From: an uncultured Gammaproteobacteria bacterium
Lineage (GTDB): Bacteria > Patescibacteriota > Patescibacteriia > Magasanikbacterales > UBA922
NCBI GenBank assembly: GCA_965231005.1
Contig: OZ246405.1
Location: 866,709-930,708 of the forward strand
Direction: 5' to 3'
Length of the DNA stretch: 64,000 nt
Shown: positions 974 through 48,477 of the stretch, one piece after another
Layout of the letters: each line of letters starts with the position of its first letter
How positions within the stretch are numbered: position 1 is the stretch's first letter
Translations under genes and position numbers: made by a program
The notes under the pieces: generated by a model
What the model saw: the letters and a program-made list of their open reading frames with translations, nothing else
Told to the model about the DNA's origin: nothing
The model's database searches: none

Positions 974-3904
974 ATGCCAAAGAAATTAAACAAATCACAA
1001 CAAGATGCCGTCAATATAATTGACGGCCCTCTTTTAATTATTGCAGGAGCTGGAACAGGGAAGACTACTGTGATTACTGAAAAAATTTCACACCTTGTCA
1101 AAAGTGGAAAAGCAAAGCCAGAAGAAATTTTAGCACTCACGTTTACAGATAAGGCAGCAGAAGAAATGAAAGAGCGTGTTGATGATATGCTTAACATTGG
1201 ATATGTTGATTTGCAAATATCAACTTTTCACACCTTTTGTCAGCGTCTCCTTGAACAATTTGGCATTGACATTGGAATAAGTAATCATTTTAAACTTCTT
1301 ACAGAAACAGATGCATGGCTCTTGCTTCGACAGCACATGCTTGATCTAGATCTTGATTATTATAGACCAGCAGGTAATCCAGCAAGGCATATTCATGAAT
1401 TATTAAAACATTTTTCAAAATGTAAAGATGAATTAATTTCTCCAGCACAGTATCTTGAATATGCAGAGAATATAAAGCTTGATAAAGATGATGTTCATGG
1501 AGAGGAAAAAAGCAGACTTACTGAGATTGCAAATGCGTATCATGCATATAACCAACTTCTTTTAGATAACAATGCATTGGATTTTGGTGATTTGATGTAT
1601 TATACCGTTTCTCTTTTGGAAAAAAGAAAAAAGATTAAAGAGAATCTTCAGCAGCGGTTTAAATATATTTTGATTGATGAATTTCAAGACGTAAACTGGG
1701 CACAGTATGTCTTGATTACCTTGTTAGCAGAACATGCACAACTTACTGTTGTGGGAGATGATGATCAAAGTATCTATGCATTTCGTGGTTCAAACGTCTC
1801 TATTATTATGCGATTCAAAGAAGATTTTCCAAAAGCACAAGAAATTGTCCTAAGTGAAAATTTTCGCTCAACACAGAACATTCTTGACCTTGCATACAAA
1901 TCAATTCAAGAAAATAATCCAGATAGACTGGAGGCAAAATTTAGTATCAATAAAAAATTAACAGCGTTTAATGGGAAGTCAAAAGAGAAAAATTCAATTG
2001 TGCATCTTCATTATGCAACGCTTGACGAAGAAGTTTCAGGAGTTGTGAGTCAAATTAATTCCTTGAAAAAAAATAATCCAGATGTTACATGGGATGACAT
2101 TGCAATTCTTGCTCGAGCAAATACGCATGTAGAACCATTTATTCAAGCACTTGAGCAGTCAGGAATTCCATATGAATATCTTGCATCAAGTGGTTTATAT
2201 CGACAGAAAATTGTTCTGGATTGTTTTAATTATTTTAGAGTACTAGACAATAACAAGGAATCATCTGCAATTTATCGATTGCTTCGTCTTCCTTTTTTGA
2301 ACATGAGTGACTTTGACCTACAGCAGTTCACATCATTTTGCAAAAGAAAATCAATTTCATATGTACAAGGTCTTCGCAAAGGAGCTGAGATTGGTCTGAG
2401 CCAAGAGGGGATTGCTGCTTGTCAAAAGATTACCTCTTGGATTTCAGAGGGTATGAGAAGAGAGAGATATGAGAAACCAAGTGTTGTCTTGTACACCTTT
2501 TTGGAGGAAAGTGGATACCTTTCATATCTGACGCATGAGGAGAATCAAGGAAACACAGATGCAATGCGAGAGATTTTATTTTTAAAACAATTTTTTGATT
2601 TTATATCTGCATATGAAAAGGCTGTACCAGATGCACATGTTAGAAGTTTTGTAGAGCATTATACTGCGATTCTCGATTCTGGAGATGCAGGAGGATTGCA
2701 TCAGCCAACCGAAACACGTGATTCTGTAAATATTATGACTGTTCATGGATCAAAAGGATTAGAATTCAAATATGTGTTTCTTATCAACATGGTTGAAGAA
2801 AGGTTTCCGACACGTCGAAAAGGAAAGGGGATAGAAGTTCCAATTGAGCTTATTCATGAACAGCCACCAGAAGGAGACATTCATTATCAAGAAGAAAGAA
2901 GATTGTTTTATGTTGGATTAACACGTGCAAAAGAACAATTATTTTTGACAAGTGCAGATAATTATGGTGGAGTAAGAAAGAAAAAGCTTTCTCGTTTTCT
3001 TGCTGAAATTGGATATGATACAAATTGTGTTAAAGAAGCTGAAAAATCTTTGCTGACTTCTAAAAAAGAAACCAAGTCAGATAGGGGAGCTGTTGAATAT
3101 GATATTCCTAAAAAGTTTTCTTTCTCACAACTAAAGATGTATGAAATTTGTCCATACAAATATAAATTGGCTCATATTTTAAAACTCCCAATGAAAGGCA
3201 GTCCTCATTTTAGTTTTGGAAATACTATTCATAATACGCTTCAAAAGTTTTATGAAAAAGTAAAAGAACTCAATGGATTGAAGCAGGATTCTCTTTTTGG
3301 TCTTCCAAGTGAGTCATCTGTTCAGTCAAATATTCAAGTTCCATCTCTTGATGATCTTTTGAACATGTATGAAGAGTCATGGATTGAAGACTGGTATGAA
3401 AGTAAGTGGCAAAAAGAAACATATCATAAAAAAGGGCGTGACATTCTCAAAATCTTTTATGCTGCACAAGAAGATCATTGGACAATACCAATTAGCTTGG
3501 AAGGATTTTTTAAGATAAAACTTGGAGATGATATTTTGCATGGAAGAATTGATAGAATTGATAAGCAAGAAGACGGAACACTGGAAATTATTGATTATAA
3601 AACAGGAAAAGGCAAGGAAAAACTTGCATCTGGTGATAAAGATCAATTGCTTGTATATCAAATAGCAGCAGAAACATTGCCAGAGTATAGTAATGTTGGT
3701 TCTCCTGGGAAGTTGACGTTTTATTATGTAGAGGATAATATACAAACATCGTTTATTGGAAAAAATGAAGAACTTGAAAAGCTCAAAGATAAATTGATCC
3801 AGAAGATTGAAAAAATCAAACAAGGAGATTTCAAAGCAACACCAAACAAAATCATGTGTCGCAGGTGTGACTTTCGTGATATTTGCGAATTTCGTGCAAA
3901 GTAA
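974..3904 (+). CDS. UvrD/PcrA-family SF1 helicase fused to a C-terminal Cas4/AddB-like PD-(D/E)XK nuclease with a 4-Cys Fe-S motif
   Basis: 976 aa; Walker A GAGTGKTT near the N-terminus, DEFQD motif II and VGDDDQSIY motif III; C-terminus has RIDRIDK...EIIDYKTGK (nuclease motifs II/III) plus CPYKYK and CRRCDFRDIC (C-x2-C-x5-C Fe-S signature as in Cas4/AddB). Confidence 0.8.
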   Translation: MPKKLNKSQQDAVNIIDGPLLIIAGAGTGKTTVITEKISHLVKSGKAKPEEILALTFTDKAAEEMKERVDDMLNIGYVDLQISTFHTFCQRLLEQFGIDIGISNHFKLLTETDAWLLLRQHMLDLDLDYYRPAGNPARHIHELLKHFSKCKDELISPAQYLEYAENIKLDKDDVHGEEKSRLTEIANAYHAYNQLLLDNNALDFGDLMYYTVSLLEKRKKIKENLQQRFKYILIDEFQDVNWAQYVLITLLAEHAQLTVVGDDDQSIYAFRGSNVSIIMRFKEDFPKAQEIVLSENFRSTQNILDLAYKSIQENNPDRLEAKFSINKKLTAFNGKSKEKNSIVHLHYATLDEEVSGVVSQINSLKKNNPDVTWDDIAILARANTHVEPFIQALEQSGIPYEYLASSGLYRQKIVLDCFNYFRVLDNNKESSAIYRLLRLPFLNMSDFDLQQFTSFCKRKSISYVQGLRKGAEIGLSQEGIAACQKITSWISEGMRRERYEKPSVVLYTFLEESGYLSYLTHEENQGNTDAMREILFLKQFFDFISAYEKAVPDAHVRSFVEHYTAILDSGDAGGLHQPTETRDSVNIMTVHGSKGLEFKYVFLINMVEERFPTRRKGKGIEVPIELIHEQPPEGDIHYQEERRLFYVGLTRAKEQLFLTSADNYGGVRKKKLSRFLAEIGYDTNCVKEAEKSLLTSKKETKSDRGAVEYDIPKKFSFSQLKMYEICPYKYKLAHILKLPMKGSPHFSFGNTIHNTLQKFYEKVKELNGLKQDSLFGLPSESSVQSNIQVPSLDDLLNMYEESWIEDWYESKWQKETYHKKGRDILKIFYAAQEDHWTIPISLEGFFKIKLGDDILHGRIDRIDKQEDGTLEIIDYKTGKGKEKLASGDKDQLLVYQIAAETLPEYSNVGSPGKLTFYYVEDNIQTSFIGKNEELEKLKDKLIQKIEKIKQGDFKATPNKIMCRRCDFRDICEFRAK

Positions 3905-6049: not shown

Positions 6050-7093
6050 ATGTTAGGAAAATTATTTGGAAAATTTGGAAAAGACATTGGTATTGACCTT
6101 GGAACTGCAAACACACTTGTGTATGTAAAAGATAAGGGGATTGTTATCAATGAATCAACTGTTGTTGCCATTAACAACAAAACCCAGCAAATACTTGCAG
6201 TCGGATATGAGGCAAAAAACATGCTTGGAAAAACGCCTCCACATATTACAGTTACCAGACCACTTAGTGGCGGAATTGTTTCAGATTATGAAGTGACTGA
6301 AAAAATGTTGAAGTACTTTATTGATAAAGTATTTGAAGGTGGTGTGAGTGTTATGAGTCGCCCACGTATTATTATTTCTGTTCCATTAGAAGTTACAGAA
6401 GTTGAAATTAAAGCTGTTGAAGATGCTGCTGTTGCTGCTGGAGCTCGGGAAGTGTTTATTGTGCAAGAACCAATGGTTGCGGCTATTGGTGCTCGCATGC
6501 CAATAAAAGATCCTGTGGGAAACATGATTGTAGATATTGGTGGTGGAAACACAGAAGTTGCTGTTATTTCTCTTAGCGGAGTTGTTATTTGGAAATCGAC
6601 AACTGTTGGTGGAGATGAAATGAATAGAAATATCATGCAGTATGCAAAGGAAGTATTCAATCTTTTTGTTGGTGAAAGACATGCAGAGCAAATTAAAATA
6701 AAAATAGGTTCAGCCATTGACACAGGAGAGCCAATGCAATTTCCAATGCGTGGAAGAGATGTTATTACAGGTCTTCCAAAGGAAGTTATGGTCACAGATG
6801 CTGAAATTAGAGAAGCACTAGAGCGATCTGTCCATGCGATTGCAGATTTAGTAAAAATGACTCTAGAGGTAACACCACCAGAATTGACTGCAGATATTCA
6901 TGAGAGGGGATTGCTTCTCGCAGGGGGTGGATCCCTGCTTCGAGGAATTGATACGGTTATTTCTGCAGCAGCAGAAGTCCCTGTCAGAATAGCTGATGAT
7001 CCATTGACAGCGGTTGTAAGAGGCACAGGAATTCTTTTAGAAGATGATGAACTGCGTGAAGAAGTTGTTCTTCCTTCTGCAAGAGTCAACTAA
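6050..7093 (+). CDS. mreB: Rod shape-determining protein MreB (actin homologue)
   Basis: 347 aa; IGIDLGTANT phosphate-1 motif, DIGGGNTEVAV and LAGGGSLLRG motifs. Confidence 0.9.
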   Translation: MLGKLFGKFGKDIGIDLGTANTLVYVKDKGIVINESTVVAINNKTQQILAVGYEAKNMLGKTPPHITVTRPLSGGIVSDYEVTEKMLKYFIDKVFEGGVSVMSRPRIIISVPLEVTEVEIKAVEDAAVAAGAREVFIVQEPMVAAIGARMPIKDPVGNMIVDIGGGNTEVAVISLSGVVIWKSTTVGGDEMNRNIMQYAKEVFNLFVGERHAEQIKIKIGSAIDTGEPMQFPMRGRDVITGLPKEVMVTDAEIREALERSVHAIADLVKMTLEVTPPELTADIHERGLLLAGGGSLLRGIDTVISAAAEVPVRIADDPLTAVVRGTGILLEDDELREEVVLPSARVN

Positions 7094-44358: not shown

Positions 44359-44557
44359 AGTATGAAGAGAAACTAGTGAATAATGTTCCAAACCTGTTAC
44401 TGTAAAACAAAACTCGACTTTGTTCCTCTCACAGTACGATCTGATACGCGGCATTATAGCACAGAAGGTCTATTTTGTCAAGGATTGTCGGAAAAGGAAT
44501 AAAAATCAAATACTCTCTAAAACAAAAGACCCAAACAAGAAAGTTGGGTCTTATCTG

Positions 44558-44630
44558 CTCCGCGGGCCGGACTCGAACCGGCGACAAATTGGTTAACAGC
44601 CAACTGCTCTACCAACTGAGCTACCGCGGA
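44558..44630 (-). tRNA. tRNA-Asn (GTT)
   Basis: Cloverleaf readable by eye: acceptor TCCGCGG/CCGCGGA, D-arm TAGCTCAGTTGGTAGAGC, anticodon loop CTGTTAA, T-arm GGTTCGAGTCC; CCA not encoded. Confidence 0.85.
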
Positions 44631-44740
44631 ATAAATTGTATGTCTCTCATTCAAACAACGATAGTTTACTCACCAGCTTATCCGTACAAATTTTGAAAAA
44701 TGTGTACAAAAGCATTGAGTAACCTAACATAAAATACCAA

Positions 44741-44824
44741 CTGTCCCGACGCTCCGACCTTGTCGGAGGTACGGGACTCCGGACAAAACGCAAAGCGTTT
44801 TCGTCGGAGAGCTACCGCGGAATA
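44741..44824 (-). repeat. Conserved structured element (two hairpins) plus a 16-bp direct copy of the tRNA-Asn 5' end; copy A of a two-member family
   Basis: 44741-44808 has 18+14 nt identical to copy B at 48054-48120 and forms hairpins GTCCCG-ACG-CTCCGAC/GTCGGAG-GTA-CGGGAC and AAAACGC-AAA-GCGTTTT; 44809-44824 exactly equals 44618-44633 (tRNA-Asn nt 1-13 plus 3 nt of flank). Confidence 0.55.
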
Positions 44825-44871
44825 TAAAGACGAAGAAAAGTATACAAAAAAAGACTAAAAAAGTCAATTCC

Positions 44872-45384
44872 CTATTTATCCTCAGCTAGGGATGTTTTTT
44901 TCATAATTAAAAATCCACCAGAAGAGATGGCAACAAATAAAAAGAAGCTAAATACTTCTGCAGTTAGTAATCCAAATAATAGCTTTAGAAAACTAAAGTC
45001 AATGGAGTGAAGGTATAAAGGAAAAGTTATGCCAAAGAAAAGGACAAACTGAATAAGCTCTGCTAACCAGAATGCAATAGAAATGCTTTTTGCATATGTT
45101 CTTATTTTTGTGCCTTCATAGTCTGCTTTCGACAAAAAGAAAATTGGAAGTGCTGCTGGAAGAAAAAAATAGAATATTGTGTACTCTATATTTGAAACAA
45201 GACGTTGGAAACGTTGGTCACCAGAAAATAAATGAAGAATAAGAGTTTTCAGCAAAATAAAAAAAAGCTTCACAAAAATTACTATTCTTGCAATTTTAGG
45301 AAAAGCTTCCCTCCTTTTTGATTGTATCATAGTAAAAATGACAGACGAGTAAAAATGTTGCGAGTGGGCTATGTCAAAAGACAC
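44872..45384 (-). CDS. Hypothetical polytopic membrane protein
   Basis: 170 aa, hydrophobic; no motif. Confidence 0.35.
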   Translation of the reverse strand: MSFDIAHSQHFYSSVIFTMIQSKRREAFPKIARIVIFVKLFFILLKTLILHLFSGDQRFQRLVSNIEYTIFYFFLPAALPIFFLSKADYEGTKIRTYAKSISIAFWLAELIQFVLFFGITFPLYLHSIDFSFLKLLFGLLTAEVFSFFLFVAISSGGFLIMKKTSLAEDK

Positions 45385-45405
45385 AGCCCACCCACAGATG
45401 ACAGG

Positions 45406-45969
45406 CTAATTGGCACCGACCATATCACAGAGCCACGGACCCCACTTGCAGGTGATGTACCAAGCATCGCCACCATTTTCCCAGTTCGCGTACCAGCAAG
45501 CTTTTTGCCAAACCTTCTTTCTCCTCTGGCATTCCACACTGAATGAGAAGTGAGTCCAAGACTGGCCTTTTTTGCTTGCATAAGCTTCCTTGTACGACGA
45601 CAGATCAGTGAGCTCGAGTACGATATCCCTGTTCAAGTCTTCCTTGCGCAGTGTTGACCGAAGAGATCCTTTCGTTTGATGCACGAATGCCGCATGGACG
45701 CGAACGACATCATGATCGTTGATGTTGGCAGAGAAAAAGCCTTGCTCTCCAGTCTTCACGATGAAGTAGGGAGAATCAGGATCGTCTCCGGTCTCGATGA
45801 GCACGTCAGCATTTGCGATCGGTGCACCTTCGAACATGACCTGACCACTCAGCTGGTCGCTGGTGGGCTGCTGATCAACAGCATCGAAATCAGCAGCACA
45901 GCCGGTCATTGCGAAGGCAATGAAAAGAGTGAAAAGAAACAGTTGCTTTGAAACATATTTGAAAGACAT
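45406..45969 (-). CDS. Lipoprotein with a carboxypeptidase-regulatory-like beta-sandwich domain and a Cys/Trp-rich C-terminal tail; GC-rich (~52%) island
   Basis: Start MSFKYVSK at 45969 with AGGGAGG SD 8 nt upstream; lipobox FAMTGC; SGQVMFEGAPIANADVLIETGDD...FFSANI resembles CarboxypepD_reg/transthyretin-like domains; tail CQRRKKVWQKACWYANWENGGDAWYITCKWGPWLC. Confidence 0.55.
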   Translation of the reverse strand: MSFKYVSKQLFLFTLFIAFAMTGCAADFDAVDQQPTSDQLSGQVMFEGAPIANADVLIETGDDPDSPYFIVKTGEQGFFSANINDHDVVRVHAAFVHQTKGSLRSTLRKEDLNRDIVLELTDLSSYKEAYASKKGQSWTHFSFSVECQRRKKVWQKACWYANWENGGDAWYITCKWGPWLCDMVGAN

Positions 45970-46140
45970 TAGTAGTCCCTCCCTTATGTAGAATCCTTGA
46001 TTTCTGAAACAACCCTCGTGGTTATTACACAATCAAGATAGTTTGATTATTATAAATCTATTTTAGTTTGTAAAATAAATCGCCAAAAAACCCTCAAAAT
46101 TAAACAAAAGTGAAAATAGCACGAATTTTTTCAAGCAAAA

Positions 46141-47857: not shown

Positions 47858-47912
47858 TTATACCACAAAAATAAAAACAATCAGGATGGTGATTGTTAAT
47901 AGAATTGAGTAG

Positions 47913-47986
47913 AGCCACCTGTGAGGATCGAACTCACGACCTACGCGTTACGAGTGCGTCGCTCTAGCCAACTGAGCTAAGGTGGC
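47913..47986 (-). tRNA. tRNA-Thr (CGT)
   Basis: Acceptor GCCACCT/AGGTGGC, D-arm TAGCTCAGTTGGCTAGAGC, anticodon loop CTCGTAA, T-arm GTGAGTTCGATCCTCAC. Confidence 0.8.
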
Positions 47987-48053
47987 GTACCAAACTAGGT
48001 ATACTACAAAAAGTAGTACTGGATTTAAACTGTGTCAAGTATCAATCCAAAAA

Positions 48054-48136
48054 CTGTCCCGACGCTCCGACTTCGTCGGAGGTACGGGATTCCGACTGAA
48101 CGCAAGGCGTTCACGTCGTAAAGCTAAGGTGGCGTA
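48054..48136 (-). repeat. Copy B of the conserved structured element plus a 15-bp direct copy of the tRNA-Thr 5' end
   Basis: 48054-48120 matches copy A (inner helix TGAACGC-AAG-GCGTTCA carries compensatory changes relative to AAAACGC/GCGTTTT); 48122-48136 exactly equals 47975-47989 (tRNA-Thr nt 1-12 plus 3 nt flank); on the minus strand the outer hairpin is followed by AGTTTTTGG. Confidence 0.55.
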
Positions 48137-48144
48137 GTCAGTGG

Positions 48145-48477
48145 CTAGGATACTTCAAGACGAGGGATAATGTCAATTGGGGGTTCTTCGTATGGATGCA
48201 CTTTTTTAATAACATCAATAACTTCTTTTACCTTATCTTTATGACAGAGTGTTTCGAGTACAACTTCTTCAACTTCTTCTGGTGTTCCTATTGCTCCCAC
48301 AGCAGGGTTTGCTCCTGGAAGGGGTGTGAAACGTCCAATAACGTTATATGATCCGCTACAATGCGAATAATTGCCTTGCACACCTGCACCAGCATCTCCT
48401 ATCGCCTGACGTACTTTTTCAGCTGAGTCTACTGGTGTAGACACAACTATTTTTACAAAATCAGATTCTTGTAACAT
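48145..48477 (-). CDS. Small PII/CutA-like (GlnB-fold) protein, Nif3-insert-like
   Basis: 110 aa; VKIVVSTPVDSAEKV...HPYEEPPIDIIP resembles CutA1/Nif3-associated GlnB-like domains; weak. Confidence 0.4.
   Translation of the reverse strand: MLQESDFVKIVVSTPVDSAEKVRQAIGDAGAGVQGNYSHCSGSYNVIGRFTPLPGANPAVGAIGTPEEVEEVVLETLCHKDKVKEVIDVIKKVHPYEEPPIDIIPRLEVS

Follow-up and report, generated by a model that had tools for sequence, protein, structure and literature searches.

Homing-endonuclease open reading frames (ORFs) such as those of Allomyces atp6 and of the cox1 3′ duplications in fungal mitochondria carry a substitute for the end of the gene that they enter and leave the resident end behind as a pseudogene, and the double-hairpin elements of Allomyces are one of several types of palindromic mini-insertion. 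SegB of phage T4, a GIY-YIG homing endonuclease of the free-standing type, has a conserved tRNA motif as its recognition site, and its gene is spread by break repair together with the tRNA genes next to it (PMC2330249). A tRNA-Thr 5′ fragment upstream of the live gene was left by a mobile element in Caldiarchaeum (PMC3293823). Here, a related arrangement was analysed in a 64,000-nt stretch (henceforth “the window”; contig OZ246405.1, positions 866,709 to 930,708) of a genome of the Patescibacteria, or Candidate Phyla Radiation (CPR), in which a tRNA-Thr 5′ fragment is split by a double hairpin rich in guanine and cytosine (GC) and lies just upstream of the live tRNA-Thr gene. The tRNA-Asn locus at 44.6–44.8 kb has the same build. 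The explanation we favour, with confidence evenly balanced between right and wrong, is that the feature would be a scar or non-autonomous member of a cassette of GIY-YIG nuclease and hairpins that invades tRNA genes.

The window has a GC content of ~36% and contains four tRNA genes, including the two concerned. The parts of both loci (copy B at tRNA-Thr, copy A at tRNA-Asn) are given below in window positions.

47912 to 47986, minus strand: live, intact tRNA-Thr(CGT), called by ARAGORN and by Rfam (62.8 bits)
47990 to 48051, minus strand: 62-nt filler from relic B to the live tRNA-Thr, where related loci have a GIY-YIG gene
48052 to 48056, minus strand: continuation of relic B, CAGTT, equal to tRNA-Thr nt 13–17, by comparison with tRNA-Thr
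48057 to 48121, no strand: GC-rich double hairpin, copy B, 65 nt, from folds and the core pattern
48057 to 48089: copy B hairpin 1, outer stem TCCCG(AC)/(GT)aCGGGA, nested CTCCGAC-TTC-GTCGGAG
48090 to 48121: copy B hairpin 2, CCGAC/GTCG stem, nested TGAACGC-AAG-GCGTTCA
48122 to 48136, minus strand: relic of the former tRNA-Thr start, TAC plus nt 1–12, an exact copy of 47975–47989
48145 to 48477, minus strand: upstream ORF of 110 amino acids (aa), with a weak, sub-threshold CutA1 match
48147 to 48176, minus strand: promoter-like TTGACA-18-TATCCT just 5′ of relic B, within the 3′-terminal part of the upstream ORF, a consensus match only
44557 to 44630, minus strand: live, intact tRNA-Asn(GTT) of the copy A locus, called by ARAGORN and Rfam
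44735 to 44742, minus strand: continuation of relic A, AGTTGGTA, equal to tRNA-Asn nt 14–21, by sequence comparison
44744 to 44808, no strand: double hairpin, copy A, from a repeat finder, the core pattern and folds
44809 to 44824, minus strand: relic of the tRNA-Asn start, TAT plus nt 1–13, an exact 16-nt copy of 44618–44633
44839 to 44867, minus strand: promoter-like TTGACT-17-TATACT just 5′ of relic A, from a consensus scan

Read on the tRNA strand, copy B consists of TAC-GCCACCTTAGCT-(hairpins)-CAGTT and, with the hairpins excised, equals tRNA-Thr from nt −3 to +17 (20/20 positions); copy A consists of TAT-TCCGCGGTAGCTC-(hairpins)-AGTTGGTA and equals tRNA-Asn from nt −3 to +21 (24/24 against the live gene). 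The hairpins are inserted between nt 12 and 13 of the tRNA-Thr copy and between nt 13 and 14 of the tRNA-Asn copy, i.e., in D-loop-coding DNA. Because tRNA-derived sequence resumes past the hairpins, these split a tRNA 5′ fragment and are not flanked by a repeat. The first-pass annotation, made from the letters of the window, had described 48122–48136 as a 15-nt direct repeat of the tRNA 5′ end (15/15 nt identical), with a 16-nt equivalent at copy A and a common architecture of minus-strand tRNA and preceding ORF (stop at 48145 for copy B); these sequence statements all hold. What was called a direct repeat is, however, by the above comparison what is left of the start of an older tRNA-Thr gene, its D-loop interrupted by a mobile palindromic module. 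Only nt −3 to +17 are left of this old gene, and the complete tRNA-Thr follows 147 bp downstream. Within the annotated bounds of 48054–48136, the element proper covers 48057–48121. At all ~13 tRNA-linked loci examined, the tRNA-derived piece corresponded to the tRNA next to it, either perfectly or with a few bases different. The view that the copies are no coincidence was also borne out. The 64 kb contain exactly two occurrences of the 34-nt core GTCCCGACGCTCCGACNNNGTCGGAGGTACGGGA (0.00 expected from shuffles), and the family is present in other genomes and phyla.

In the first-pass annotation, a constant match between repeat and adjacent tRNA was to indicate site-specific recombination at tRNA 5′ ends, with a cognate integrase or recombinase to be sought, which would make the 15/16-nt repeats the attL/attR cores of an integrase that inserts a mini-element there. 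An identical 15–16-bp core does flank a short insert at both loci, and tRNA genes are classical integrase targets. Yet the cores differ between the loci (Asn vs. Thr) and range from 15 to 28 nt among all loci, the hairpins lie inside the repeat since tRNA-derived sequence runs past them, and the inserts measure only 132–175 bp. Pfam scans of the 69 window ORFs returned housekeeping functions only (aminoacyl-tRNA synthetases, MreB/C, SUF system, ClpB, Mur ligases etc.) and no integrase, transposase, HNH, or GIY-YIG domain, and no tyrosine or serine recombinase was found among the called genes beside the homologous loci, where the recurrent gene is a small GIY-YIG nuclease. We consider an integrase very improbable and read the repeat as the remnant of a displaced tRNA 5′ end that was split in its D-loop. 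As in Caldiarchaeum and in integrase islands, a partial tRNA is stranded by an insert and a complete tRNA is regenerated, with the stranded piece being the 5′ one as in Caldiarchaeum. Unlike integrase islands, the loci have no recombinase, their inserts are 0.13–0.45 kb instead of kilobases, GC-rich hairpins occupy the junction, and repeated events stack relics in tandem (L023, L010, and L028; L numbers denote loci of other genomes or metagenomes). A fixed-length target-site duplication was ruled out as well by the range of repeat lengths (15–28 nt) and the shifting insertion point in the D-arm.

Empty and occupied versions of the site were found in relatives via the CutA-like upstream ORF, which has many Patescibacteria homologues. 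In L025–L027 (67% protein identity), the gene order is the same as in the window (Translin, Mur ligase, DivIC, SurA-like, CutA-like, tRNA-Thr(CGT), FtsE, FtsX, tRNA-Gln, tRNA-Asn), and the site is empty, with an intact tRNA-Thr 10 nt after the CutA-like stop and neither hairpin nor relic. Relic B marks the former tRNA-Thr start, as it begins 11 nt past the ORF stop compared to these 10 nt, and relative to the empty-site relatives the window has a 147-bp insertion within the former tRNA-Thr gene. The former tRNA-Thr gene was probably transcribed from the TTGACA-18-TATCCT site as its original promoter. In L020/L021 (72% identity), which have the same synteny, the locus is occupied differently, with relic, double hairpin, and live tRNA-Thr in the order GCCTTCTTAGTTCAG-(CCCCGAC..GTCGGGG TCCCGAC..GTCGGGA)-TGGATA, 17 nt, tRNA-Thr. 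The relic-plus-hairpin module at the CutA-like/tRNA-Thr/FtsE site is hence present in the window and L020/L021 and absent from L025–L027, a difference between species.

The tRNA-Thr(TGT) site of L018/L019 is empty, and L018 is the empty counterpart of L016, where 23 nt of the L018-type gene are present as a fragment ahead of a complete but different tRNA-Thr, which lies between GC-rich inverted repeats. This tRNA-Thr(TGT) of L016 (4400–4560) has an acceptor stem unlike that of the upstream relic and lies whole between the inverted repeats CCCGCCCGCCAGTCGCC ... GGCGATCGGCAGGCGGG; from its sequence, it looks as if a whole tRNA gene had been delivered inside a long hairpin. In L023/L024, three fragments are stacked before the live tRNA-Thr, one of them interrupted in the anticodon loop. 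Within this array (6340–6700), a CCGAC double hairpin and a second hairpin interrupt fragment 1, and the stem half CCTGCCCGCC comes after fragment 2. Fragment 3 runs undisturbed as far as the anticodon, and another two hairpins then break it at 36|37. All these types of fragment equal live alleles of other genomes (L016, L018). The CutA-like/tRNA-Thr locus has been hit repeatedly in different lineages.

For the hairpin itself, the core was run against one genome collection and one metagenome set, which yielded six loci (L001, L002, L005–L008), all with the same compound hairpin as the window. In L006/L008, a tRNA-Arg 5′ fragment (nt 1–15), the hairpins, the rest of the D-arm (nt 16–26), a 97-aa ORF, and an intact tRNA-Arg follow each other; the ORF starts ~12 nt past the D-arm rest, and the intact tRNA-Arg abuts or overlaps its stop. 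ORFs of this type are a GIY-YIG domain (Pfam E = 6.7e-15) with the stand-alone UPF0213 proteins 1zg2 and 1ywl (96–107 aa) as closest solved structures, and their homing-endonuclease matches in NCBIfam and PHROG cover the N-terminal motif only. A protein search returned 182 close homologues, most of them labelled Patescibacteria, and an exhaustive search 1,874 clusters at 50% identity. Many of the homologues are on very short contigs. In the representative library, P0241 is a highly repetitive protein of 1,617 aa, in which 31 separate stretches match residues 24–51 of the GIY-YIG query (E = 8e-64).

Gene neighbourhoods of the nuclease were surveyed on the contigs of five GIY-YIG homologues, which were fetched for this purpose, plus the loci of the hairpin scan. 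Every GIY-YIG gene in the fetched loci is situated just upstream of a tRNA gene and is preceded by the relic of its own tRNA (exact or with few mismatches), the D-arm of which is split by GC-rich hairpins. The start codon of the nuclease follows 0–20 nt after the D-loop remainder, and the stand-alone nucleases at these junctions have 85–99 aa. The series of relic 5′ end, CCGAC/GTCGG double hairpin, D-loop rest, GIY-YIG gene, and intact tRNA was seen in at least eight other Patescibacteria loci. The N-terminal extensions of several predicted nuclease proteins are translated hairpins. The nuclease cases were distributed as follows.

L006: two nuclease cases, the second at Ile-TAT
L008: nuclease case, tRNA-Arg
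L009: two nuclease cases, Arg-GCG and Arg-TCT
L010–12: two nuclease cases, Arg-GCG and Ser-TGA
L013–15: nuclease case
L028–32: nuclease case
L033–42: nuclease case

Arg-linked nucleases are 54–72% identical to each other and always accompanied by CCGAC/GTCGG double hairpins; Ile- and Ser-linked nucleases have 30–40% identity to the Arg-linked ones and occur with other GC-rich hairpins. The clade of the nuclease thus goes with the type of tRNA and with that of the hairpin. A basic C-terminal tail, KKLKRKDYIEKM..G.IK, is conserved in the Arg-linked proteins (L006, L008, L009, L010, L013, L028, L033) and absent in the Ile- and Ser-linked ones, and might be a minimal DNA-binding helix. The Ile-linked gene of L006 (10094–10440, minus strand) lies between similar GGCC-type hairpins, CCTCTGGCCCTACGG..GGCCCGGAGG, one in the D-loop of the relic and one right before the live tRNA-Ile, whereas Arg-type cassettes are one-sided. 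In L010, a fragment with hairpin, the nuclease gene, a second fragment with hairpin, and the tRNA are arranged in series. Two more dead copies, each composed of nt 8–15, the double hairpin, and nt 16–76, are present in L028 at 2735–3060, downstream of the live tRNA-Arg(GCG), and in one of them a third hairpin is nested in a hairpin loop; hairpin-split copies may therefore flank a live gene on either side. Another repeat family was noticed beside the same tRNA-Arg in L033/L034, where the tRNA 3′ end (TGCCGAGGGCA) is repeated downstream of the gene together with the GC-rich unit TTTGAGCGAAGCGAAAATGTCCGAGAG (~2880–3200 in L033).

As for SegB, a GIY-YIG gene is thus found among or next to tRNA genes in the related loci. 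SegB is larger and modular, has a DNA-binding part, and recognises the T-psi-C region, whereas the CPR protein is a bare UPF0213-type domain of 85–99 aa at a D-arm junction. Further differences from SegB are the split tRNA 5′ relic and the GC-rich hairpins of the CPR loci, their cellular CPR host genomes, and the window, which has no nuclease gene.

The architecture of the hairpin module is constant, with two adjacent hairpins on 7-bp stems NNCCGAC/GTCGGNN (17–18 copies from ~12 independent loci) and variable loops that often contain a further nested helix. Whichever strand is folded, copies A and B each form a pair of adjacent hairpins (z between −3.0 and −4.1 relative to dinucleotide shuffles), and they have 43 nt in common at 93% identity (44739–44781 vs. 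48052–48094, repeat finder). Neither mismatch patterns nor a CCGAC..GTCGG regular expression nor a scan for GC hairpins retrieved a third copy in the window. The compensatory changes reported earlier for the inner hairpin were confirmed: in the second hairpin, copy A has the nested helix AAAACGC/GCGTTTT and copy B TGAACGC/GCGTTCA, with two base pairs fully swapped on both strands (A-T to T-A and A-T to G-C). Across the larger set of copies, CCGAC/GTCGG is the unchanging core of the stem, and compensated changes are seen in the two outer pairs (C-G, T-A, A-T, G-C). In total, 65 of 68 cells of these pairs are Watson-Crick compared to 37 ± 3.2 after shuffling of the 3′ letters, a measure that is inflated by the relatedness of the copies; none of 10,000 shuffles reached 65.

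Over ~34 nt, the compound variant of the window is nearly identical in a Saccharibacteria metagenome-assembled genome (MAG; L002) and a Nomurabacteria MAG (L001), and this near-identity across phylum-level lineages with unrelated flanks implies horizontal mobility. The module is in frame in a prmC-like methyltransferase gene in L002, in typA in L001 (+12 residues in a loop), and in L005/L007 in a transketolase-like gene, at its 5′ end. A short hairpin repeat in frame in protein genes is a trait of Rickettsia palindromic elements that these loci have in common, and the window copies are intergenic. The bases immediately 5′ of the element are (T)CAA or TAAA at 4/4 in-gene sites, as at the D-loop sites. 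Loop-targeting as a rule for the in-gene sites was rejected, since the flanks in the typA, prmC-like, and transketolase-like genes form no hairpin around the insertion point. Viral contigs were scanned with different hairpin patterns with regard to a phage origin, with 0 matches.

With Rickettsia palindromic elements, repetitive extragenic palindromic sequences and bacterial interspersed mosaic elements (REP/BIME), yeast mitochondrial GC clusters (PMC4478555), and sponge repetitive hairpin-forming elements (PMC2800124), the module shares short GC-rich hairpins in AT-rich compact genomes; it is non-coding, can be in frame, has compensatory stem changes, and spreads between lineages, like palindromic mini-insertions in general. 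Compared by description, it differs from these by a copy number that appears to be very low, its ties to dead-tRNA D-arms and to one nuclease family, and the conserved CCGAC/GTCGG. Unlike REP, it has YYCCGAC at the start of its stems instead of a GTAG head, and it comes without a RAYT gene; no Y1 (RAYT) transposase domain was detected in the window ORFs.

These likenesses bear on the main rival of the cassette explanation, to which we assign roughly half the weight of the latter, so that it is possible but improbable. According to this rival, the double hairpin would be a self-standing palindromic mini-element that is moved in trans and tends to land in tRNA D-arm DNA, and the GIY-YIG gene would be an unrelated tenant of a promoter-proximal safe site; as the insertion kills the gene copy, only insertions into a duplicated tRNA would survive. 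Hairpin-split dead tRNAs without a nuclease (both window copies, L020, L010 relic 2, L028 c/d) fit this well, as do the in-frame copies in the typA, prmC-like, and transketolase-like genes with no nuclease near, the essentially open state of all six reading frames of the element, hairpins nested in the loops of other hairpins, and the occurrence of the module in both orientations relative to the tRNA. Against it, copy number appears to be low, with two copies in 64 kb and no extra copy in ~20 kb around each homologous locus, and a concatenated six-frame peptide search for in-frame copies gave 41 word candidates and 0 hits at E ≤ 10, which means that in-gene copies are rare or that the approach is blind to them. 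Moreover, the ordered adjacency of hairpin and start codon in every nuclease locus, together with the match of nuclease clade and hairpin type, is hard to obtain by chance, and the D-loop remainder TGGATA of L020 fits an Arg-type cassette but not the local tRNA-Thr.

A role of the hairpins as RNA was considered as well, be it as a pre-tRNA leader or processing signal, as a terminator of the upstream ORF, or, in other genomes, as a stabilising 5′ untranslated region of the nuclease mRNA, with the relic being kept by selection. The promoter-like sites just upstream of both relics mean that relic and hairpins are probably transcribed, and in L020 the gap of only 17 nt between module and tRNA implies transcription of the tRNA through the module. 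The base pairs covary, and several loci have relics that still equal the live tRNA in sequence. On the tRNA strand, the tail CAGTTTTTGG comes after the last hairpin of copy B, at a distance of 2 nt; copy A has no such tail. Nevertheless, the consensus scan for intrinsic terminators was empty at both copies, and a search of the window against Rfam 15 matched only the four tRNAs at gathering thresholds, with nothing overlapping the element even at E ≤ 1. The presence of the module in either orientation and inside coding sequences, the invariant CCGAC/GTCGG core with covariation in the outer pairs only, and the related genomes with an empty site, which do without the module, also speak against an RNA role, which we regard as unlikely. 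The earlier description as a “functional structured element or mobile mini-element” thus stands in so far as the copies are palindromic, covarying, and found in other genomes, while nothing indicates a structured RNA.

In the cassette explanation, the hairpin module would be one end of a mobile cassette common in Patescibacteria, the full version of which would comprise the double hairpin, the D-loop remainder, a gene for a GIY-YIG (UPF0213-like) protein of 85–99 aa, and a regenerated tRNA 5′ part or whole tRNA. The nuclease would break tRNA-gene DNA in the D-arm region, and repair of the break would copy the cassette in, by which the old 5′ end is stranded upstream and a working tRNA supplied. 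Such an insertion would be tolerated even where each tRNA gene is single-copy, because the cassette or the repair provides the displaced 5′ part or the whole tRNA. Insertion would be neutral for the same reason as in the above-mentioned fungal endonuclease ORFs, i.e., the cassette copies the displaced segment and the old segment stays as a relic; the fungal mitochondrial ORFs replace 3′ ends of protein genes, whereas in the CPR case it is a tRNA 5′ end with the hairpins exactly at the break point. The window copies would have lost the nuclease gene or never had one, and as they are without it, they would need a nuclease encoded elsewhere. Compensatory changes would mean that palindromes are kept up in the DNA and would not point to an RNA function; probably, the nuclease binds or cleaves at these structures.

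Several observations weigh against this explanation. Firstly, no GIY-YIG gene or remnant was retrieved from the window or its fillers (tblastn with the L006 protein at E ≤ 10; Pfam on the 69 ORFs), and the hairpins of the window are inverted relative to the tRNA compared to L006/L008. Characterised homing endonucleases have a DNA-binding domain, whereas the GIY-YIG protein consists of the catalytic domain alone. In several loci, the D-arm of the live tRNA is identical to that of the relic, so that a simple immunity model, in which insertion destroys the target site, fails. Repeat lengths between 15 and 28 nt and insertion points that range from nt 11 to nt 23, with a single case in the anticodon loop, argue against a single precise cleavage-and-integration reaction. 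Finally, the hairpin-split dead copies without a nuclease gene (L010 relic 2, L020, L028 c/d), some of which are downstream of the live gene, suggest that the hairpin may move independently of the nuclease.

A bolder version, which we put forward tentatively and consider doubtful, is that the small GIY-YIG nuclease of UPF0213 type would form, with the CCGAC/GTCGG double hairpin as its cognate partner, an unrecognised class of autonomous mobile elements in Patescibacteria, with the window copies as non-autonomous derivatives. Such an element would target the D-arm of tRNA genes or, more generally, loops of hairpin-forming DNA, would be harmless by regenerating the displaced tRNA 5′ end instead of splicing, and would cause repeated replacement of tRNA alleles (compare the stacked relics in L023, L010, and L028). 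If true, this would assign a first biological role to the widespread UPF0213 family. In the full-text literature, no published description of the arrangement of relic, hairpin, and nuclease was found, only analogues; apparently, no known precedent joins a bare UPF0213-type nuclease, a double hairpin in a stranded tRNA D-loop, and tRNA regeneration, and the combination appears to be undescribed. The two copies of the window are real but passive members of this family.

As CPR genomes are tiny and their tRNA genes single-copy, the breaking and rebuilding of tRNA genes bears on genome stability and on the movement of alleles. If the link between nuclease and hairpin holds, a selfish element would live in an essential RNA gene in a new manner, by duplicating the displaced end rather than by splicing, and uncharacterised stand-alone GIY-YIG (UPF0213-like) proteins would gain a testable function. 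The link would also explain the “graveyards” of tRNA fragments and the assembly breaks next to tRNA genes in CPR bins, and compact nucleases specific for a structure or a sequence might be obtained from the family. In genome annotation, tRNA-like fragments, ORFs translated from hairpins, and N-terminal extensions of the nucleases should not be called genes. An example in the window is a 51-aa ORF (47982–48137, plus strand; MAYQTRYTT...SRRSDFVGGTGFRLNARRSRRKAKVA), which is a translation of antisense tRNA-Thr and hairpin and may be reported by gene callers as a hypothetical protein.

The fillers between the tRNA 5′ fragment and the complete tRNA measure 62 nt in copy B and 101 nt in copy A; in local alignments with each other, with the upstream promoter region, and with the ORF end, they scored no better than shuffles (p = 0.08–0.6). 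Next to the second hairpin copy, the region between tRNA-Gln and the tRNA-Asn relic (44872–46100) contains a 208-aa ORF with a weak DUF4198 match and a 170-aa membrane-like ORF at a GC content of 43% compared to ~36%. This block of 1.3 kb looks like a lineage-specific insertion, since tRNA-Gln and tRNA-Asn are only 14 nt apart in L025–L027. Lastly, two short-read Logan contigs with an identical CutA-like ORF (L003 and L004, from ERR2281801 and ERR2281800) stop exactly 78 nt past the ORF stop, inside hairpin 1; these assemblies break at the hairpin repeat.

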